From positions 28,976 to 92,975 of the forward strand of contig JBAZRK010000001.1 in assembly GCA_041663005.1 (NCBI GenBank): a stretch of DNA of 64,000 bases, in the 5' to 3' direction. Below, piece by piece: positions 1,493-26,934 of this stretch. Within the stretch, counting starts at the first letter, position 1, and every line of letters begins with the position of its first letter. Below the pieces are notes generated by a model. It was given only the letters and a program-made list of their open reading frames with translations. It did not search any database and was not told the origin of the DNA. The position numbers were made by a program, and so were the translations under genes. Source of the DNA: Minisyncoccota bacterium. GTDB taxonomy: Bacteria; Patescibacteriota; Minisyncoccia; Phycocordibacterales; UBA9973.

Positions 1493-1897
1493 GAGCCTTG
1501 TGCTTTGATAGCTACTCTCCGTTTCGGCGGAGGGAGGAAAGTCCGAACACACAGCTCCGCAAGGAGTTAAACGTAGCGGGTAACGCCCGCCGCCCGCAAG
1601 GGCCGAGGTGCGAACAGTGACGAACCGATTCAGTTCGGGTGAAACGGCAAAATCCTTACGCGTGTGCAAGATCGTGCTCCAATTTTGCCTGCCATAGGCA
1701 GCTGCAAAATTGAGAGTCTTGAGCGAAGCCGAAAGGCCCTTCGATAAACTCAGGATGCTCAATTAATGCAACCACCTACGGTGGGCATAATTGGCAGAGA
1801 ATCGCTTGATCCGCCTGGTAACAGGCGTGACAGATAAATTGCTATCGCTCGATGTAATATCAAGCCACAGAATTCGGCTTATAAAGCGCAAGGCCCA
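1493..1897 (+). ncRNA. rnpB: RNase P RNA, bacterial type A
   Basis: Conserved RNase P motifs read directly: GGAGGAAAGUCCGAAC (P4 5' strand/CR-I), GGUAACGCC (CR-II), GGGUGAAACGG (CR-IV), ACAGAAUUCGGCUUAUA (CR-V/P4 3' strand); P1 helix gccuugugc(1495-1503)/gcgcaaggc(1885-1893); followed by intrinsic terminator. Confidence 0.9.
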
Positions 1898-1991: not shown

Positions 1992-2048
1992 ATGGAAGTG
2001 AGTGTGAGGTTGATCCTTACATTTATCGTAAACAACATAAGTGCCGCA

Positions 2049-2083
2049 AAACCCCGCCGCAAGGCGGGGTTTTGTTTTGTTTT
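2049..2083 (+). terminator. intrinsic terminator / attenuator hairpin upstream of EamA-like gene
   Basis: aaaaccccgccgcaaggcggggttttgttttgtttt: 7-bp G/C stem, T-rich tail; sits between promoter at 1964-1991 and a second TATAAT (2098-2103) preceding the 2112 start. Confidence 0.6.
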
Positions 2084-2586: not shown

Positions 2587-3441
2587 ATGATCACCAAAGA
2601 ATTAGAAAGATACATTATTCAAGCAAAAGCTCAGGGAATGACTGAAGCGCAAATTCGCCAGAACCTTATGGGGAGCGGAGGTTGGAGTCCTGCTGACCTA
2701 GATCAAGCCTTTAGTGTTTTTAGCGGAGGTGGTATTTCTGGGGGAACTGTTGTTGCCGGGGGCGCAACTGTTGGTGCAAAAAGTTATTTAGGCTGGGTGA
2801 TAGGAGCAATCCTCATATTAGGGGCAGTCGGCGGAGGTGGTTATTATTTTTTGAATCTTTCCAATAACCCAGGTTCATCTAGTTCAGAATTTAACGCAAG
2901 CACCGGTCAATTAAATTCATCAGAGGAAGATTTAGCTGCAGAAGGTTTGGGGCAAACACCGACTAACCCAGTACCAGGCACTTTAACAGAAAGCAAGCCT
3001 TCAAATACTTTTGGAGTAGAAAAAGATTGTGGAATTGCGTTGAATGATGATGAGTTTAATGATAAGGGAGCTTGCATGGGTCTGGCCCTAGCCACTTGTT
3101 CTCTAGCTAAGATAGCTCAAGGTCCTACCACCGAAAGGCTTACCATTACTATTAAACCAGAAGGAAACTCTTGCATATTATCAGCCTCTTCGAATGTAGA
3201 GGTTTCAGGTTTTGAACTCAAAACCTGCAAATTTTCAAATTCTTCCTTAAGCACACTAAGGTCAGAGTTACTTAATCTTAAGCAACGCGTTAACCCCTCT
3301 TTTAAAGGGGGTGCTATGGATGAATCCATTAATACCGATATTTTTCTAAGAATTTTTGAGGCGACGTTGGATGAAAAAGCATTGAAGAGTTTACAAACCG
3401 GCACTATTTCTTTCTCAAAAATGGATGTGAGTTGCCAGTAA
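2587..3441 (+). CDS. single-pass membrane protein, paralog family member A: conserved N-terminal cytoplasmic module + TM + Cys-rich ectodomain ending FSKMDVSCQ
   Basis: 284 aa; N-term MITKELERYIIQAKAQGMTEAQIRQNLMGSGGWSPADLDQAF, Gly-rich TM, ectodomain KDCG..ACMG..C..IKPEG..C..CKF...FSKMDVSCQ shared with the next gene. Confidence 0.75.
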   Translation: MITKELERYIIQAKAQGMTEAQIRQNLMGSGGWSPADLDQAFSVFSGGGISGGTVVAGGATVGAKSYLGWVIGAILILGAVGGGGYYFLNLSNNPGSSSSEFNASTGQLNSSEEDLAAEGLGQTPTNPVPGTLTESKPSNTFGVEKDCGIALNDDEFNDKGACMGLALATCSLAKIAQGPTTERLTITIKPEGNSCILSASSNVEVSGFELKTCKFSNSSLSTLRSELLNLKQRVNPSFKGGAMDESINTDIFLRIFEATLDEKALKSLQTGTISFSKMDVSCQ

Positions 3442-3470
3442 GAAATTATTATTAATTATTAACTAATTTT

Positions 3471-4355
3471 ATGATCACACCGGAATTAGAAAATTACATA
3501 AAACAATCTCGTGTGCAAGGAGTGCCCGATGCTCAAATCCGCCAGAATCTTATGGCAAGTGGGGGCTGGAGTGAAGGTGATTTAAATGAAGCGTTTGGAG
3601 GTTTTCAAACACCCATACCAACCCCAGTAGCAGCCGTAGGCATAGCCGCGTCCAGTCATTTGCCACTAATCTTTGGCATAATTGGAGTGTTGATTTTAGT
3701 TGGTGGAGGATTTTTGGGCTATCAATATTATTTAAAATATAAATTTTCACACTCTATAATGGTTTTCGATATGCCGTCTGATGAGAAAGTAAATGAACCG
3801 TCAAACACCACACAAGAAAATCCGCCCATAGAGCCAGAAGAGAGTTCGGGGTTTAGTGGGTTAATGTCTGGTGAAAAAGACTGTGGAACAGCTTTTATTT
3901 ACAGTAAAGATTATGATTTTAATAAAGCTAGCACAGACCTTCAAAACGCTACGAATATTAGAGAGGGTAATGCTTGTATGGGACGAGCTTTTTCTCCCTG
4001 CACGCCTGCAAAGTTAAAGGTATCGTTTTCCGACCCACAATTCGGTACGTCATACTACACAATTAAGCCAGAAGGAGATTTCTGTGTTCTTAATTTTTCA
4101 GAAGAAAATACCGTCAAATCAAATCAGGCACCATACAAATCTTGTAAGTTTTTAAATTCGGATATACCAGAAGTAAAAGCTGACCTCCAAAAAGTCCAAA
4201 ATTCTATGGGGATTATGGGGGCTGATGCCGAGCTTGCGACCAATGCCACGTTCTTTATGTTTGTCTCTACCACTTTATATAACGCAGAAAGTTTAAAACA
4301 AACTAAATCCATAATTGGGGTGGATTTCTCAAAAATGGATGTGAGTTGCCAGTAA
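3471..4355 (+). CDS. single-pass membrane protein, paralog family member B (tandem duplicate of previous gene)
   Basis: 294 aa; N-term MITPELENYIKQSRVQGVPDAQIRQNLMASGGWSEGDLNEAF; same six-Cys ectodomain pattern and identical C-terminus FSKMDVSCQ. Confidence 0.75.
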   Translation: MITPELENYIKQSRVQGVPDAQIRQNLMASGGWSEGDLNEAFGGFQTPIPTPVAAVGIAASSHLPLIFGIIGVLILVGGGFLGYQYYLKYKFSHSIMVFDMPSDEKVNEPSNTTQENPPIEPEESSGFSGLMSGEKDCGTAFIYSKDYDFNKASTDLQNATNIREGNACMGRAFSPCTPAKLKVSFSDPQFGTSYYTIKPEGDFCVLNFSEENTVKSNQAPYKSCKFLNSDIPEVKADLQKVQNSMGIMGADAELATNATFFMFVSTTLYNAESLKQTKSIIGVDFSKMDVSCQ

Positions 4356-4485
4356 ATCAAGCAAAGCTAATCCCTGGAGTCAGTTAACAGCTTTAGTTAT
4401 CCACAGTTTATTTTATATTAGTTAGGTATATAATTATGCTAAATTATAGTATTTTTATATTAATTATTAACTAATTTAATTAAAT

Positions 4486-5928: not shown

Positions 5929-6004
5929 TGGTGGACCCGAGGAGACTCGAACTCCTTACCCCCTCATTGCAAATGAGGTGCTCTACCAGATGAGCTACGG
6001 GCCC
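5929..6004 (-). tRNA. tRNA-Ala (anticodon UGC)
   Basis: Reverse complement GGGCCCGUAGCUCAUCUGGUAGAGCACCUCAUUUGCAAUGAGGGGGUAAGGAGUUCGAGUCUCCUCGGGUCCACCA: cloverleaf with 7-bp acceptor, G3:U70 Ala identity pair, anticodon loop UUUGCAA, discriminator A73, encoded CCA; abuts glnA-family stop codon. Confidence 0.9.
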
Positions 6005-6044: not shown

Positions 6045-7115
6045 ATGCAAATTACTGTTCCCTATGCTAGTCTAAAAAGCATAATGGCCTACGAATTTTA
6101 TACCAACTCACAGAAGACCTGGACGGCAATGTTTCAAGCGATTGAGAACGCTAGAAGCTCTGTTTACTTGGAAACATATATATTTCTCGACGACTTGCAC
6201 AAATTTGATTTCCTGCGGTTGTTTCAAAAGAAAGCAGAGCAGGGAGTAAGGGTGCGCATTGTGCTTGATGCGTTCGGTAGTAGAGAATTGCCCAAGAAAT
6301 CAGTAGAAGAGCTTAAGGCGAGCGGGGTGGAAGTATTTTTTTACAGCCAGCTCTTGCACAGGATTCATAGGAAAATATTGATAATCGATGACAATACCGC
6401 TTTCATTGGCGGAGTCAATTTCCACGAAGTTGCGCGAACCTGGAATGATTTAACTATTCTTATTCGCGGTGTCTTAGTGAAGTCTATATTGCGCTCCTTT
6501 GCGAAGGTCTATGTCGAATGTGGGGGGCGAGACCCGCTAATTTTGAAAGAAAACAAAAAGCTCATCCTGGACAAAGCACGCAACTGGCTGGTGGAGCATT
6601 TCCCGGAAAACAAAAGCGCGACACTGAAGAAAGTTTATAAAAAAGCGTTAAGCAAAGCGGAGAGCCACGTGATACTAGTGACGCCTTACTTAATGCCCAG
6701 GCGGTGGTTCGTGAGAGCGCTCCACCAGGCGGTGCTTCGTGGGGTCCGGGTAGATGTCTTGGTGCCGAAAGTTTCCAATCACATTTGGGGTGACAGCATA
6801 GGAGCCTTTTTTATGCATAGACTTGCGCTCCTAGGGGTAAACTTTTATCTCGAGCCCGAGATGAACCATGCCAAAGGTATGCTCATCGATGATAGCGAAG
6901 GTCTGGTGGGCTCGAACAATCTCGACTTCTTTTCTTTCGATCTCAATTCAGAAGTTTGTGTTTTCTTAAGGGATCCAGAAGCGGTACAAAGGCTTGCGGA
7001 AATAATAGTAGGCTGGCAGAAGAAGGCAGAGCTTTTCAACCCGGACACCTATAAACCAAAATTTATCGATTACATTATCTCGCCTCTAGTGCGAATTCTC
7101 TCGCGAATTTTCTAA
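6045..7115 (+). CDS. phospholipase D / cardiolipin-synthase-like protein with two HKD motifs
   Basis: 356 aa; HRKILIIDDNTAFIGGVNF and HAKGMLIDDSEGLVGSNNLD = two HxKxxxxD motifs; start may be at downstream Met (6084). Confidence 0.75.
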   Translation: MQITVPYASLKSIMAYEFYTNSQKTWTAMFQAIENARSSVYLETYIFLDDLHKFDFLRLFQKKAEQGVRVRIVLDAFGSRELPKKSVEELKASGVEVFFYSQLLHRIHRKILIIDDNTAFIGGVNFHEVARTWNDLTILIRGVLVKSILRSFAKVYVECGGRDPLILKENKKLILDKARNWLVEHFPENKSATLKKVYKKALSKAESHVILVTPYLMPRRWFVRALHQAVLRGVRVDVLVPKVSNHIWGDSIGAFFMHRLALLGVNFYLEPEMNHAKGMLIDDSEGLVGSNNLDFFSFDLNSEVCVFLRDPEAVQRLAEIIVGWQKKAELFNPDTYKPKFIDYIISPLVRILSRIF

Positions 7116-7219: not shown

Positions 7220-7759
7220 ATGAAAAAAACAACAATTGGAATTTTCGTCGAGCGAAATGATGCGGAAAAATTTATAAACTACGTTCACAATGAAATCAAA
7301 ATTCCCCACGAAGACATTTCTTACATCTATAAAGATGTACTAGGGATTGAAAGGGAAGTTGATACTGAAGAAATAAGCTCGCTTACCACAGCCGAGGGTG
7401 CTGAGAAAGGGGCGAAGACTGGAGCTGTCGTGGGAGCCTTGGGCGGCATCGCTGCCGTCGCGGGCGTCATACCTATAGTCGGGATGCTTTTTGCTGCAGG
7501 GCCCTTGATTGCGGCCATTGGGATTACCGGGGCATTGGGCACTACAGCAGCCGGGGCGGTGACTGGGGCGGCCATAGGGGGCATTATAGGAGCACTAGCT
7601 AACCTTGGGGTGGGTAAAGAGCGAGCCAAGGATTATGAAGACAGGGTTCTCTCCGGCAACATCCTAGTTGCGGTTAACTCAGAACAAGAGAAGGACGTAG
7701 AGGATGCAATGGCGAAACACAATGCCCTTGAGGTGGAGACATATGTGCCGAGTGTATAA
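7220..7759 (+). CDS. glycine-zipper membrane protein (general-stress-protein-like, DUF1269/YflT-like; name tentative)
   Basis: 179 aa; central GxxxG/AxxxG-rich hydrophobic segment flanked by charged N and C domains. Confidence 0.55.
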   Translation: MKKTTIGIFVERNDAEKFINYVHNEIKIPHEDISYIYKDVLGIEREVDTEEISSLTTAEGAEKGAKTGAVVGALGGIAAVAGVIPIVGMLFAAGPLIAAIGITGALGTTAAGAVTGAAIGGIIGALANLGVGKERAKDYEDRVLSGNILVAVNSEQEKDVEDAMAKHNALEVETYVPSV

Positions 7760-7881: not shown

Positions 7882-7953
7882 TCCGGGGTAGCTCAGCGGT
7901 AGAGCGGTCGCCTGTTAAGCGATTGGTCGTAGGTTCGATCCCTACCCCCGGAG
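7882..7953 (+). tRNA. tRNA-Asn (anticodon GUU)
   Basis: UCCGGGGUAGCUCAGCGGUAGAGCGGUCGCCUGUUAAGCGAUUGGUCGUAGGUUCGAUCCCUACCCCCGGAG: acceptor UCCGGGG/CCCCGGA, anticodon loop CUGUUAA, T-loop UUCGAUC, discriminator G; 3' end overlapped by the stop region of the recombinase ORF. Confidence 0.85.
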
Positions 7954-22011: not shown

Positions 22012-24171
22012 ATGAAAAAATTGAATTTGATGTCTCGTTTAGGTTTGTTAGGAACCGCGATGCTTATAGCAGTGGGCGGTTTTTTTGTGGCAGAAAAAGC
22101 TTTAGCAGTTACAGCAAATATTAATCATTTGGCTATAACCACCGAAGCGCAAACAATTTCTGTTAGTGTGGCTTCAAGCGTCATTACTGTACAGACAAGA
22201 AATGCTGAAGACACAGCAGAGCAGTTGGATACGAGTGGGACAACTGTCTCATTAGCTAGTTCCTCGGCTACCGGAGAATTTTCCAGTAATAGTGAAACGT
22301 GGGAAGCCGTGACGACCCTGGGAATGAATAATGGTACAGCTAACAGAAACTTTTATTACAAAGATTCCGTTCCTGGAACTTACACAATTACAATAAGCGC
22401 AGATGGTTGGACTGAAGCTACCCAAAGTATAGTTGTAGAAGGCGACGTTCCACCTGCCGCAGGTCCGGTTTTTATTGATGATAACACCAATGGAACATTT
22501 GATGAAGGAGAAAGTGATTTTGAAACTATTCAAGAAGCCGTTGATGCGGCGAATCCTGGTGATACCACAGGCGACACCATAGTTGTAACAGCAGGAACTT
22601 ACGACAGTTTTTCAGTGGTTGATAAATCCGACCTTACTATCTCCGGTGCAGGTCAGGGTGAGACAATAATAGAACCGACCACTTTAGTGACCACTAGCAC
22701 TGCGCATAAATATACTGCAAATATGCTGGCTTCAGTATTTGTAAATGGATCGACGGGCATAACCATTCAGAATATGACAATCAAGTCAAACGATCAAACT
22801 CCTGGCTCAGGAGGTCCTGACGCAATAGTCTTTTGGAATGCCTCTACGGGCACAATAGGGAATTGCGACATAACCGGTGTTTATACGATAAATGGGGTAC
22901 AGAGCGGCCAAGGTATCGCGATAGATGCGAGCGGCAGTCAAGCATCCGACCTTAGTGTTGAGGACTCTAACATAAGTGGATTCCAGAAGAACGGGATAGA
23001 AGCCATTGATGGCAACGGGGCAACATCCGGCGCCACGGACACAATTACAATTTCAATTAATGGTGGGAGCATAACTGGTGCCGGCCCGACCGATGCAATC
23101 GCACAGAATGGTGTGCTGGCTTGGAACCGTGGCGGGGGCGGAGTGTCGGCTTCCATAGATGGAACTGAGATTTCCGGTTTTAGCTATACTGGTGACGCTA
23201 CGGCTGCTGGAGTTCTGGCCTACGGTGGCGGCAACATTATGGTAAACAATTCCACATTAACTAATAATCAGCTGAATGTTTCTAATGTCGATAGTCCGCA
23301 AATAGATGCGAGCAAAAATTATTGGGGTAGCGAAGACGGTCCGGTCGCCGAAAGCATCGAGGGCGATGTAATATTTTCTCCTTGGTTTTCGGATGCGGAT
23401 ATGACTGAGCTCTCAACCACTCTGGCAACTACACTTCCGGTAACAGTAGGAGCCTTAACCATAGATATACCTGACGATATAACGATAACAGGTGATGAAA
23501 ACTGGGACGGCTTACTTGAAACACCTACTGCAACTACAGTGACCTTGGATATTCCCGGCTTTAATACCGACGTAAGTTCTGCGATTGCCCTCGGTTCAAG
23601 TTTATATGATCTTACTTTTGACAAGGCGGTAAAGCTTACATTCGCAGGACAAGCTGGCAAGCATATCGGCTGGTACGATGCCGCTGGTGACTTCACTGAA
23701 ATTACTGACGACTGTAATGCAACGGGCGGAGATGACCAAGCACTACAAACAGCTCAACTTGGAGGAGAGGCCTCATGTAAGATGGATGTGGGTGAAAACC
23801 TAATTGTTTTTACCAAGCACTTTTCTACATTTCTTACTTACACAACCGAAGCGGAAAGTGCTGGAAGCAGTAGCGGTAGTCGACGAAACTCAACTGCTCC
23901 TTCAACTCCTGGACAGATTCTCGGTGCAGAGACTGGTCCAGATGAAAGCTTCGTTTTCACTCTTTCTTTGAAAATGGGCCCACCATATCAAAACCAGGCA
24001 GAAGTTATGGAACTTCAGAAATTCTTAAATGCCGCTGGGTTTGGACCGCTAGTTATAGATGGAAAGTTCGGTCCATTGACGAAAGATGCACTGGTTAAAT
24101 TCCAGTTGGCGAATGGATTGGTGGGGGACGGAGTGGTAGGTCCTTTGACTCGAGCGGTTCTAAACAAGTAA
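22012..24171 (+). CDS. secreted right-handed beta-helix (pectate-lyase-fold) protein with C-terminal peptidoglycan-binding domain
   Basis: 719 aa; signal peptide; Gly/Asn/Thr-rich repeats typical of parallel beta-helix; C-terminal LQKFLNAAGFGPLVIDGKFGPLTKDALVKFQLANGLVGDGVVGPLT = PG_binding_1 pattern. Confidence 0.7.
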   Translation: MKKLNLMSRLGLLGTAMLIAVGGFFVAEKALAVTANINHLAITTEAQTISVSVASSVITVQTRNAEDTAEQLDTSGTTVSLASSSATGEFSSNSETWEAVTTLGMNNGTANRNFYYKDSVPGTYTITISADGWTEATQSIVVEGDVPPAAGPVFIDDNTNGTFDEGESDFETIQEAVDAANPGDTTGDTIVVTAGTYDSFSVVDKSDLTISGAGQGETIIEPTTLVTTSTAHKYTANMLASVFVNGSTGITIQNMTIKSNDQTPGSGGPDAIVFWNASTGTIGNCDITGVYTINGVQSGQGIAIDASGSQASDLSVEDSNISGFQKNGIEAIDGNGATSGATDTITISINGGSITGAGPTDAIAQNGVLAWNRGGGGVSASIDGTEISGFSYTGDATAAGVLAYGGGNIMVNNSTLTNNQLNVSNVDSPQIDASKNYWGSEDGPVAESIEGDVIFSPWFSDADMTELSTTLATTLPVTVGALTIDIPDDITITGDENWDGLLETPTATTVTLDIPGFNTDVSSAIALGSSLYDLTFDKAVKLTFAGQAGKHIGWYDAAGDFTEITDDCNATGGDDQALQTAQLGGEASCKMDVGENLIVFTKHFSTFLTYTTEAESAGSSSGSRRNSTAPSTPGQILGAETGPDESFVFTLSLKMGPPYQNQAEVMELQKFLNAAGFGPLVIDGKFGPLTKDALVKFQLANGLVGDGVVGPLTRAVLNK

Positions 24172-24195
24172 ATTATTAAAGTTTTACTTCACAAA

Positions 24196-24230
24196 ACCCC
24201 ACCTGTACAGGCGGGGTTTTGTTTGTTACA
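24196..24230 (+). terminator. intrinsic terminator
   Basis: aaaaccccacctgtacaggcggggttttgtttg. Confidence 0.65.
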
Positions 24231-24238
24231 ATACGCGA

Positions 24239-25246
24239 ATGAAAAAATGGCTCAAGAAGCATTTTATTCCCCACCCAGAAAATGACCATCGGCCGCACCT
24301 ACTCCGCGCCGATACTGCCAGGAACACTATCCTCGTAGTGCTTTTTTTTGAAATCACTCTCTTTGTTATTCCGGCGCTATTAAATTTGAATCTTTCCGGG
24401 GGTATGGCTGCGGTGCTGCCTGCTGTTTTAGGAAACCTGACGAATGAAGAGAGACAAGAGCTCAACCTGCCGACGCTTACAGTGAACCCCCTACTCGAGC
24501 AAGCAGCACAAATGAAAGCCCAAGATATGGCAGATAAGGGTTACTTCGCGCACACGAGCCCCGAAGGCAAGACACCCTGGTACTGGATGGAAGTAGCGGG
24601 ATATAAATACCAATACGCCGGAGAAAACTTGGCCGTAAACTTTCGGGATTCGGAAGACGTAACCCGCGCCTGGCTCGCGAGCCCTACCCACCGAGCCAAT
24701 ATTGTGAAAGGCAACTACACAGAGATGGGGACAGGTATAGCTCGAGGGAAATATAATGGCAAGGCCACTGTTTTTGTAGCACAAGTGTATGCCAACCCGA
24801 TGCCAGCGCCTATCGCCAAAGAAATTATTCCCGTCAATGTGCCGGTGCGCGCTTTCGTAGCCACTCCTACAATCAAACCGCAAGTGTTAGGCACCGAGAC
24901 AGTAGCACAAGCCCTAGAGAAGAATACTGATGTTGCCGAGACTCCGATTAAAGAGGAATTAAAATTCGAGGCTAAAGTTTCCGAAGAGCCATCGCCTTGG
25001 CACGAGTTTATGGCTTCGCCGCGTAATACGACCAATACAATTCTTATAGTCATTTCAGGCGTTATGGCTCTAGCCCTATTCTTCTACTTGGCACTTCGAA
25101 TGAAAGAACACGAAACAGATCTCGTAAACAATGGCCTCACAGTGCTAGCCATCGCGCTCGCGGTTATGATAGGTAACTACTATTTGACCTTCAACAATAT
25201 GACCGTAACTGCAAGTTACGATTACGCGCTCGAAGACACAATCTAA
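24239..25246 (+). CDS. CAP/SCP/PR1-like (YkwD-type) domain protein with N- and C-terminal TM segments
   Basis: 335 aa; CAP motifs GYFAHTSPEGK, YAGENLA, ASPTHRANIV..YTEMGTG; C-terminal hydrophobic helices. Confidence 0.7.
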   Translation: MKKWLKKHFIPHPENDHRPHLLRADTARNTILVVLFFEITLFVIPALLNLNLSGGMAAVLPAVLGNLTNEERQELNLPTLTVNPLLEQAAQMKAQDMADKGYFAHTSPEGKTPWYWMEVAGYKYQYAGENLAVNFRDSEDVTRAWLASPTHRANIVKGNYTEMGTGIARGKYNGKATVFVAQVYANPMPAPIAKEIIPVNVPVRAFVATPTIKPQVLGTETVAQALEKNTDVAETPIKEELKFEAKVSEEPSPWHEFMASPRNTTNTILIVISGVMALALFFYLALRMKEHETDLVNNGLTVLAIALAVMIGNYYLTFNNMTVTASYDYALEDTI

Positions 25247-25386: not shown

Positions 25387-26934
25387 ATGATTACTCCCGA
25401 ACTTGAAAGTTATATTAAACAAGCTCGCATACAAGGTTTAAGTGATATGCAAATTCACCAAAACCTCCTCTCGGGTGGTTGGAGCGAAGCAGATTTAAAG
25501 GAAGCTGGAATTTCTTCCCCGGAAAATTCAGTTCCAACTTCATTTCAAGCTCCTATGTCTGCCATCCGGCCACATTTAATCCAGCAGACAACTACACCCG
25601 GTATGTATATACAGAAAAAGAGCCACGCAGGACTTTACGCCCTACTGATAATTATCTTTGTTCTTCTCGGCGCCGGAGGCGGATATGCTTACTACAAGCA
25701 TATTTGGCCTTTCCAAAACGAACTTACTGATCAGTCGAGGGAGGGTGGCGTTCAAGTATCGACAGAACCCATCAATTCTGAGGCTCAGAAACAATTTTTT
25801 TCGAACGAATACTATTCGCTGACATACCCTGGCCTTTGGACCCACAATGACAAAGACGGGGTAGATTATTTCCGCGCCCCCGTCGAGGAAAATTTTACCG
25901 CCAACCTGAGCGTCGCGCGCATCTCTCCGATGGCACCCGGCACCACGATAAAACAAATAGCCGAAGCTTCTAAGGCGGCATGGGCCTCTGAGACACCGTC
26001 CTATTTGGTTTTAAGCGAGAATGAAACGGTAACTACAGAGGGAGATCCGGCTTACGAAATAGTGTTCACCTTCACGGATGCTTCCCATGGGGATTTAAAA
26101 ATAACCCAGAAACAATATATGGTTTTGGTAGGGAGTGATTATTTTGTACTGACTTCTACTGCCACCCCAGGGTTGTTTGAGAAATATGCTGAAGATTTTA
26201 AGGCCATTGAACAGTCTTTCCTCATCAAAGCTCTTCCAGTTGAGCAAGAGGTCGCCGCACCCAAAGCAGAACCCGGCGCCTTTTGCGCCAAAGAACCCGT
26301 GGGGCTCACTATTTGGTACTCCGGAGGAAATCTCGTAGATTATAAAAACCTAAACACGCTTCTCCCTAAAGGAAAAGTAATATTTGCTCCAGGGAAAATA
26401 GACACCGCTTTTGGATTCGATGGCCTGACGGGTTATCTCCAAGGCGGAAGTAACAAAAACAACGATCCTACTTCGGCGGGCAGTATTATGGCTTGGGTCA
26501 AAGTTAATTCCCTACCTTCTGCGTCCCATATTATGCAAATTGTGGGCAAGGGTAGTGAGGGCAAGGATTTCGATCTTCAAATCAACAAGGACAATAAATT
26601 TCACTTTTATGTCGGAGCAGGCACTGACGTAGCGTCGGACACAGTAGTGAAGACGGGGAGTTGGTATCTCGTGGCGGGAACATGGGATTCTTCTGGGCTC
26701 AAGATGTATGTTAATGGGGTATTAGAAGAAGATAAGGCTGTGAAGGTTTCTCGCCTCGCGAGTGGTCAAAATCTTAGAATTGGCAGCCACCCATCTTTCC
26801 CAGGCAGGTTTTTCAACGGTGCTATCAGCGAAATAATGATCGCAACCAAGGCGATAACCGCAGAAGAAATAAAAGCAGTGTATGACGCGGGGTCAAAAGG
26901 CGTGTGTCGCCCAGAAACTCCCCCCAAGATATAA
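25387..26934 (+). CDS. paralog family member C: conserved N-terminal module + TM + LamG/concanavalin-A-like lectin domain
   Basis: 515 aa; N-term MITPELESYIKQARIQGLSDMQIHQNLLSGGWSEADLKEA (same module as 2587 and 3471 genes); C-terminal GSWYLVAGTWDSSGLKMYVNGVL typical of Laminin_G_3 fold. Confidence 0.75.
   Translation: MITPELESYIKQARIQGLSDMQIHQNLLSGGWSEADLKEAGISSPENSVPTSFQAPMSAIRPHLIQQTTTPGMYIQKKSHAGLYALLIIIFVLLGAGGGYAYYKHIWPFQNELTDQSREGGVQVSTEPINSEAQKQFFSNEYYSLTYPGLWTHNDKDGVDYFRAPVEENFTANLSVARISPMAPGTTIKQIAEASKAAWASETPSYLVLSENETVTTEGDPAYEIVFTFTDASHGDLKITQKQYMVLVGSDYFVLTSTATPGLFEKYAEDFKAIEQSFLIKALPVEQEVAAPKAEPGAFCAKEPVGLTIWYSGGNLVDYKNLNTLLPKGKVIFAPGKIDTAFGFDGLTGYLQGGSNKNNDPTSAGSIMAWVKVNSLPSASHIMQIVGKGSEGKDFDLQINKDNKFHFYVGAGTDVASDTVVKTGSWYLVAGTWDSSGLKMYVNGVLEEDKAVKVSRLASGQNLRIGSHPSFPGRFFNGAISEIMIATKAITAEEIKAVYDAGSKGVCRPETPPKI

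Follow-up and report, generated by a model that had tools for sequence, protein, structure and literature searches.

An N-terminal three-helix module at the head of membrane and surface proteins in Patescibacteria

Two adjacent genes in a 64,000-nucleotide stretch of DNA from a Minisyncoccota bacterium (contig JBAZRK010000001.1; 42% G+C; the whole stretch is hereafter called the window) begin with the same module of about 42 amino acids (aa). The module is the first part of a conserved unit, the cassette, which consists of the module, a tether, a basic cluster, and a patterned transmembrane (TM) helix. As judged from sequence comparison, this cassette is common to hundreds of otherwise unrelated membrane proteins in Patescibacteria (the candidate phyla radiation, CPR), both polytopic proteins and single-pass proteins with the N terminus inside and the C terminus outside the membrane (N-in/C-out).

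The two open reading frames (ORFs), 2587-3441 (284 aa) and 3471-4355 (294 aa), are adjacent on the same strand (+), and their products can be aligned end to end with 33% identity (E = 2e-40). They are tandem paralogs, and the tandem duplication with a common N-terminal module, proposed earlier from the DNA letters of the window (the original prediction), is borne out. Both proteins start with MIT(K/P)ELE.YI.Q..QG..(E/D)AQIRQNLM.SGGWS..DL..AF, followed by a Gly-rich hydrophobic helix. Their ectodomains contain six Cys residues each in the pattern KDCG..ACMG..C..IKPEG..C..CKF.NS, and FSKMDVSCQ forms the C-terminal end in both, as had been predicted. For the paralog 1 protein, NCBI has an identical entry, a hypothetical protein with the locus tag WCT29_00130 on a 337-kb contig of a Candidatus Paceibacterota MAG (metagenome-assembled genome). 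A third module gene, 25387-26934 (515 aa), lies 21 kb from the paralogs and encodes the module followed by PsbP_2/DcrB and Laminin_G_3 domains, the latter confirming the LamG assignment made at first. The module copies in the 64-kb window are exactly three, as determined with a hidden Markov model (HMM) of 130 module sequences against all six-frame ORFs. The features discussed below are as follows.

2587..3441 (+): paralog 1, module, linker, TM helix, and six-Cys ectodomain; ORF, 284 aa
2587..2718 (+): paralog 1 three-helix module, aa 1-44; module HMM 72 bits, helices in the AlphaFold2 (AF2) model
2785..2853 (+): paralog 1 TM helix, aa ~67-89, YLGWVIGAILILGAVGGGGYYFL, with a Gly-rich outer half and a Tyr/Phe belt; hydropathy scan and cassette statistics
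3010..3438 (+): paralog 1 six-Cys alpha/beta ectodomain, aa 142-284
3411..3441 (+): paralog 1 3' end of 31 nucleotides (nt; FSKMDVSCQ and TAA), containing a -35-like TTGCCA; identical to 4325-4355
3450..3469 (+): 20-nt motif, copy 1; ends 1 nt ahead of the paralog 2 ATG
3471..4355 (+): paralog 2, 294 aa, architecture as in paralog 1; ORF, ortholog P0002/L007 75% identical
3471..3605 (+): paralog 2 module, aa 1-45; module HMM 81 bits
3660..3731 (+): paralog 2 TM helix, aa ~64-87, LPLIFGIIGVLILVGGGFLGYQYY; sequence and cassette statistics
3864..4352 (+): paralog 2 six-Cys ectodomain, aa 132-294
4325..4355 (+): paralog 2 31-nt 3' end; identical to 3411-3441, the ortholog differing at 4/31 nt
4397..4477 (+): conserved glnA upstream region including copy 2 of the 20-nt motif (4458-4477); near base-for-base match to L007 upstream of glnA
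25387..26934 (+): third module gene; module 25387-25509, linker, TM helix ~25627-25695, PsbP_2/DcrB-like domain, Laminin_G_3

The module family and the bodies behind it

A HMMER profile made from both paralogs and the third module was searched exhaustively against 1.84 billion cluster representatives (50% identity). This search, of a kind named beforehand as a check, gives matches in 930 clusters at E <= 1e-3, in 59 at E <= 1e-10, and in two at E <= 1e-30, revealing a wider family that is not limited to the three genes of the window. The detailed counts below are drawn from the best 150 of the 930 matches, and the cassette statistics from 144 module-carrying proteins. The module is present in 144 of the 150 and starts at residues 1-4 in 135; one protein carries a tandem double module. 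Exactly one TM helix is predicted in 141 of the 150. The positions Y9, I10, G17, I23, L27, G32, W33, and D37 of the module are nearly invariant, while E5, L6, R14, R/K24, A41, and F42 are strongly favoured. Chance similarity, an assembly artefact, or restriction to the source genome is already refuted by the 930 independent clusters, by the presence of the module in several metagenome-assembled genomes (MAGs) and metagenomes, and by the synonymous divergence within the module, which points to long-term selection at the protein level; we regard such an explanation as practically out of the question.

Neither Pfam-A (2025) nor NCBIfam (2026) contains a model for the module, and it is not described in the literature searched. 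A sequence search of PDB with the module or its profile gives no significant relative (the profile against RecX, E = 1), and the top match was rejected as an artefact of a designed repeat protein. Nothing on the family itself, on its size, on the structure of the cassette, or on a restriction to CPR is contained in Pfam, NCBIfam, or the literature searched.

All loci with an organism label belong to Patescibacteria, namely Paceibacterota, Minisyncoccia, Yanofskybacteria, and MAGs labelled 'Saccharibacteria'. The metagenome loci with the module include groundwater samples, several of which are 0.1-um fractions. With tblastn, neither the 50,697 phage records nor the 72,556 plasmid records searched contain a match. 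Confinement of the module to the Patescibacteria lineage is well supported but not proven. The original prediction had described a lineage-specific family in which a common handle is combined with differing heads; the 930 clusters and the diversity of the bodies agree with the description, and its lineage part stands at the strength just given.

Other searches recovered little of the family. In a word-indexed search of a 5.8-billion-protein collection, the full paralog protein retrieves only itself, a 45-aa profile retrieves three fragments, and an alignment of 150 sequences retrieves two proteins, the index being dominated by the low-complexity linkers. Scans of genomes and metagenomes with narrow peptide patterns recovered 5 and 13 loci; the 130-sequence alignment is too diverse for such patterns.

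The bodies behind the cassette should be noted, since their variety bears on the possible role of the module, as described later. Most of the bodies in the best 150 matches have no Pfam domain. Those recognised by Pfam are Laminin_G_3 (4 proteins), PsbP_2/DcrB (3), FGE-sulfatase, phage lysozyme, CarboxypepD_reg, TIG, CARDB, RDD, PLDc_N, and others. Among the retrieved loci, the cassette heads LamG proteins (L010) and small polytopic proteins, and in L015 and L016 it is followed by a polytopic region and then a body tied to FGE-sulfatase by the Pfam scan of the best matches. In L006 2959-4362 (Candidatus Yanofskybacteria MAG PCXO01000004.1) and in L021, a divergent module (26.5 bits) precedes a YkuD-type motif. 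The L,D-transpeptidase motif of this type in L006, HGWP...SGGCVRL, was spotted by eye and suggests that the cassette also occurs on a cell-wall enzyme.

Cassette genes are also found in arrays. In locus L013 (3839-8969 of metagenome contig ORMF010326801.1), five cassette genes directly follow one another on a single strand, with boundaries that abut or overlap, which looks like an operon of cassette proteins; two of the bodies are related (51% identity) and three are unrelated, two of the latter being polytopic. L015, L016, and L017 have two cassette genes each, the genes of L015 and L016 being nearly identical and hence not independent samples. Together with the tandem pair in the window, these loci indicate that the tandem or clustered arrangement is recurrent.

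The six-Cys ectodomain of the paralogs is a separate, previously undescribed alpha/beta family. Iterative HMM searches find its core, DCG..C..C..AK..G..C..tCk, in about 35 of the 150 matches, always behind the cassette wherever the N terminus is present. Exactly six Cys residues are contained in 31 of 36 sequences, the last one usually located within 4 residues of the C terminus (<=4). In the alignment, five of the Cys residues are invariant and the sixth nearly so, and the six probably form three disulfides. No relative of this ectodomain is found in Pfam or PDB.

Topology of the cassette and fold of the module

Cys residues are distributed with clear asymmetry about the TM helix in the 144 proteins: 1 in 10,765 residues before it and 454 in 32,188 after it. 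The number of Cys residues after the TM helix is even in 140 of the 144 proteins, mostly 2, 4, or 6, as expected of disulfide-bonded extracytoplasmic domains. Within the 15 residues flanking the TM helix, Lys and Arg average 2.29 before and 1.61 after it, the former being higher in 87 proteins and lower in 38. Taken together with the domains found by Pfam behind the TM helix, which are of extracytoplasmic types, these features show that the module is cytoplasmic, as first proposed, and that the single-pass cassette proteins are N-in/C-out (type II signal-anchor topology class).

The module is acidic, with a mean net charge of -2.3 (range -7 to +1) and a third helix rich in Asp and Glu. The linker between the module and the TM helix, in which Pro, Ser, Ala, and Thr abound, has a median length of 24 aa, with an interquartile range of 19-32 and a maximum of 134. 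In the TM helix, Ile, Leu, and Val account for 67% of the inner half and Gly for 22% of the outer half, while Tyr makes up 19% of the next six residues. A GG..aromatic..aromatic pattern is observed in 86 of the 144 proteins, for example LLGAGGGYAYYK.

One alternative is an extended cleavable signal peptide, in which the folded n-region would steer export and the ectodomain would be freed through cleavage by signal peptidase I within the Gly/Ala run. The strictly N-terminal position of the module, the extracytoplasmic bodies, and an aliphatic stretch of ~12 aa followed by small residues (for example LLGAGGG|YAYY), which fits the -3/-1 rule, are consistent with such cleavage. However, the Tyr/Phe belt immediately after the Gly run resembles the interfacial end of a full TM helix of ~21-24 aa, and the cassette also heads polytopic proteins, in which cleavage makes little sense. 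A folded domain of 45 aa with a tether of 20-130 aa, moreover, far exceeds known n-regions. We consider this explanation unlikely.

The known N-terminal extensions are also distinct. YSIRK/GS, ESPR, and KxYKxGKxW are short unstructured motifs in the n-region of cleaved signal peptides, where they route surface proteins. The module resembles them in being a conserved element at the extreme N terminus, ahead of the hydrophobic segment, in a subset of exported or surface proteins. It differs in that its 42 aa form a folded domain carried on a long tether, and neither Pfam nor NCBIfam gives a match to the ESPR (PF13018), YSIRK, or KxYKxGKxW models. A lipobox, L-x-x-C, is not found either, the 144 proteins having only a single Cys before the TM helix; in 70 TM segments inspected with their flanks, no Cys occupies the lipobox position, and the only ones present, in P0110 and P0075, are in the middle of the helix.

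Another explanation is a topogenic or biogenesis element: the acidic domain would fold fast, fix the N-in/C-out orientation, and perhaps recruit the signal recognition particle, YidC, or a chaperone, with no role in the mature protein. The obligatory N-terminal position, the acidic charge, and the invariable pairing with the following TM helix would fit, and the breadth of the bodies is consistent with a generic role in biogenesis. Orientation alone, however, needs neither the conserved polar positions (E5, R/K24, and D37) nor the Gly/Tyr pattern of the TM helix, and the positive-inside rule is already served by the basic cluster before the helix. In addition, most membrane and secreted proteins of the window lack the module. 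We give this explanation a small share of probability.

The AF2 model of the module, calculated from the 130-sequence alignment (predicted local distance difference test score, pLDDT, 87.5), has helices at residues 4-15, 20-31, and 35-44. It confirms a compact three-helix bundle of ~40-45 aa, a generic feature common to many folds. The original prediction had likened this three-helix pattern to UBA or the N-terminal domain of EF-Ts. The three helices are found in the model, and the UBA/EF-Ts assignment is unsupported. The likeness to UBA/TS-N (PF00627) lies in the three-helix unit of ~40-45 aa, the loop with a Gly residue that follows helix 1, and the hydrophobic-x-x-A-[LF] pattern of the third helix. 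The window modules do not match PF00627 even at E<=10, and only 3 of 130 family modules match it weakly (best E 0.017). UBA and EF-Ts domains are absent from the top 60 in the fold comparison, and UBA-fold domains do not give the best superposition on the predicted structure. The assignment was thus rejected.

The closest fold is one repeat of RecX. A Foldseek comparison of the model with PDB gives nothing significant (best E 2.4). The weak Pfam matches across the 130 modules are DUF494/Smg (31), RepB_primase_C (24), DUF7626 (17), RecX_HTH1 (6), RecX_HTH2 (4), and UBA (3), the RecX matches (10/130 members) being below the cut-off. The module superposes on the RecX repeat (PF21982 / PF02631) as a three-helix unit resembling a helix-turn-helix (HTH). 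With hhalign, module positions 6-43 are aligned to RecX residues 75-112, in the second repeat, with 29-33% identity, and nearly all core positions of the module are shared at the motif level with repeat 2 of RecX from two species. The alignment to E. coli RecX residues 77-109 has a P value of 0.0043 and a probability of 8%, and that to a two-species template has values of 0.0078 and 5%, both templates being thin. We conclude that the module is a RecX-repeat-like three-helix domain; homology to RecX is plausible but not established.

The differences from RecX should also be noted. RecX (PDB 3c1d, 3dfg, 3e3v, and 3d5l) consists of three stacked repeats, whereas the module is present in a single copy, rarely two. 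RecX is a soluble protein of ~150-160 aa whose gene typically adjoins recA; the module is acidic and heads membrane proteins, and its neighbours here are EamA and glnA. The repeat of the Ltp superinfection-exclusion lipoprotein (PDB 4eqq) differs as well: it is extracellular, its scores are not significant, and it has no sequence similarity to the module. A true RecX/Smg-type HTH that acts, as a membrane-tethered binder, on DNA or on RecA/DprA, for instance in DNA uptake, is a very improbable explanation. The acidity of the module, with its helix 3 rich in Asp/Glu, disfavours a DNA-binding HTH role; the attached bodies are unconnected with DNA, and the sequence evidence is not significant.

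Identical 3' ends and neighbouring genes

The last 31 nt of the paralogs (3411-3441 and 4325-4355) are identical at 31/31 positions. The 20-nt motif TATTAATTATTAACTAATTT, which had been reported to follow both stop codons, exists in two exact copies with 0 mismatches, and no other copy with <=3 mismatches is present in the window (0.01 expected by chance). The copies are located at 3450-3469 and 4458-4477, the positions given earlier being off by 1-3 nt. Upstream of these ends, the two genes have diverged considerably. Identical residues are encoded by the same codon at 13 of 25 positions in the module and at 46 of 94 over the rest of the genes, and this usage of roughly half the same codons shows an old divergence under selection at the protein level. 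In the last nine codons, by contrast, no difference is seen at any of the 8 degenerate codons or at the stop (P about 0.003).

A related genome provides a comparison. Its ortholog of paralog 2 has 75% protein identity, yet differs from paralog 2 at 4/31 nt (FSKLEVSCQ), whereas paralog 1, which is only 33% identical, differs at none. This observation indicates intragenomic gene conversion, by which the 3' end of paralog 1 and its flank would have been homogenised with those of paralog 2. The ortholog is split over contig ends of the same metagenome (the 3' end of L003/L011 and the 5' end of L007; contigs Ga0172379_10000635 and Ga0172379_10001495), with the break between the module and the TM helix, probably because the module DNA is repeated among paralogs. 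The gene upstream of the ortholog is not paralog 1 but an unrelated gene of 335 aa, and the leader there is similar, not identical (TTATTAACTAACAACTAATTTT-ATG).

About 80 nt ahead of glnA, the 20-nt motif among them, are kept almost base for base between the two genomes, and the motif therefore forms part of a glnA leader or promoter region under selection. Behind paralog 1, the 29-nt spacer reproduces this glnA upstream region in shortened form (G + AAATTAT + motif). The flank of paralog 1 is thus a copied stretch of the conserved leader or promoter of glnA, now placed directly ahead of paralog 2. A 3' flank kept since the ancient duplication was rejected on the basis of the ortholog and the codon comparison: the proposal that the duplication unit includes the 3' flank is right in outline, while the perfect identity reflects recent homogenisation and is no relic of the duplication. 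The identical ends and the 20-nt motif are a local phenomenon, separate from the cassette.

A -35-like TTGCCA within the coding end of paralog 1 lies 16 nt ahead of AATTAT in the 20-nt motif (window 3432-3459, +). The promoter and terminator scan gives match counts no higher than those for shuffled sequence, which leaves a promoter function of the motif as no more than a lead. Ahead of its ATG (3471), paralog 2 has no visible Shine-Dalgarno sequence; if the promoter at 3432-3459 is real, the paralog 2 mRNA would be almost leaderless.

The surroundings of the paralogs are of a housekeeping nature: Orn/Arg decarboxylase, DUF192, RNase P RNA, EamA transporter, glutamine synthetase, tRNAs, and PLD. 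A bacterial RNase P RNA of class A is found between the DUF192 and EamA genes at 1496-1897 (+), scoring 102.6 bits against a gathering score of 100. About 150 nt past it, a strong terminator-like hairpin at 2046-2075 (+) has a 13-bp stem with 8 G-C pairs followed by a T-run. The hairpin falls within the 5' part of the listed EamA ORF (1992-2561), in which the Pfam EamA match starts at residue 41; the true start is probably an internal Met near 2109-2112. Two tRNA genes, 5932-6004 (-) and 7882-7953 (+) (Rfam 65.6 and 70.2 bits), flank a PLD-like gene (6045-7115) and an unannotated ORF (7220-7759).

The third module gene has as neighbours genes for a pectinesterase-like/PG-binding protein, a CAP-domain protein, and a response regulator. 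The region directly upstream of it, 22012-25246 (+), encodes a pectinesterase-like/PG_binding_1 protein of 719 aa and a CAP (cysteine-rich secretory protein family) protein of 335 aa, both probably secreted. These two proteins have no module, and the cassette is therefore a mark of just one part of the exported proteome. At the window loci examined, the module genes are not adjoined by a gene for a sigma factor, a sortase, or a secretion ATPase.

Possible role of the cassette

The general arrangement, in which varying outer domains are joined through a TM helix to a small common cytoplasmic domain at the N terminus, is already known. Clostridium thermocellum has nine RsgI paralogs with a common N-terminal cytoplasmic domain, one TM helix, and different sensing heads (PMC12203970). 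The cassette proteins resemble RsgI-type anti-sigma factors in being paralogous single-pass N-in proteins with different extracellular heads behind a small common domain. Signalling of this type would mean that the ectodomain senses a ligand, and that intramembrane proteolysis then frees the N-terminal domain, which binds a sigma factor or another regulator. In addition to the gross architecture, the Gly-rich TM helix is a plausible substrate of a site-2 protease, and the anti-sigma structure RslA is among the weak Foldseek matches. The module family, however, has no sequence relationship to the RsgI type: neither the full proteins nor the 130 modules match RsgI_N, zf-HC2, or RskA in Pfam. None of the three window genes has a sigma-factor gene beside it. 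The family is also far larger, its bodies are more heterogeneous and include enzymes and polytopic proteins rather than sensors, and the five-gene cassette array would mean five parallel sensors without regulators. Signalling of the RsgI type therefore seems quite improbable to us.

Since the bodies are so varied, cassette genes occur in arrays, and paired regulators are lacking, a general handle is more likely than a dedicated sensor. The explanation that we prefer, tentatively and at something short of an even chance, is that the cassette serves as a protein-protein interaction handle, either for a common cytoplasmic partner or for mutual association of the cassette proteins. The acidic cytoplasmic three-helix domain of ~42 aa, starting from Met1, is held on a flexible tether of ~20-30 aa rich in Pro, Ser, Ala, and Thr. 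The basic cluster follows, and then the TM helix with its aliphatic inner half, Gly/Ala-rich outer half, and interfacial Tyr/Phe belt. Many unrelated extracytoplasmic or polytopic bodies have been placed behind this cassette by evolution. This architecture, like the topology, the fold, the size of the family, and the diversity of its bodies, is established by the analysis. The tethered domain, possibly together with the Gly-rich TM helix, would bind the common partner or other cassette proteins, and a defined group of membrane and surface proteins could in this way be co-localised or co-assembled.

Several points weigh against this interaction-handle explanation and the wider account of the family. 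The interaction or co-assembly step is pure inference. The conservation of the module lies largely in core positions, as in any folded domain, and so may not reflect a binding surface. The small residues in the outer half of the TM helix could equally be a signal-peptidase site; the ectodomains would then be released, leaving the handle as part of a long signal peptide. The relationship to RecX is by fold only (hhalign probability 5-8%, P 0.004-0.008; Pfam matches sub-threshold). As for the lineage restriction, most of the 930 matches are metagenomic singletons without a taxon label.

A more specific proposal is that the cassette tags proteins for recognition by a sorting or co-assembly system of Patescibacteria that has so far escaped notice, comparable to LPXTG/sortase or PEP-CTERM/exosortase but N-terminal and facing the cytoplasm. 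We think that this is rather unlikely. If true, many different ectodomains and polytopic subunits would be gathered in one membrane platform, either by a dedicated cytoplasmic receptor or by self-stacking of the RecX-like modules in combination with Gly-zipper TM helices. The platform would possibly be located at the host-contact site of these episymbionts, with arrays of the L013 type encoding its subunits. If the cassette proves to be only a topogenic element or a long signal peptide, it would still provide a useful annotation rule for CPR genomes.

The module family is a well-supported and annotatable family rather than a demonstrated new mechanism. The module and the six-Cys ectodomain are two candidates for new curated domain families, of which the module is well supported. 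Patescibacteria account for a large share of bacterial diversity, have tiny genomes, and are mostly attached to hosts, and their envelope proteins are mostly unannotated. With a 42-aa domain that marks at least 930 clusters, a defined part of the membrane and surface proteome of CPR can be catalogued by a simple sequence criterion, and the module may serve as an entry point to the surface organisation of CPR cells.

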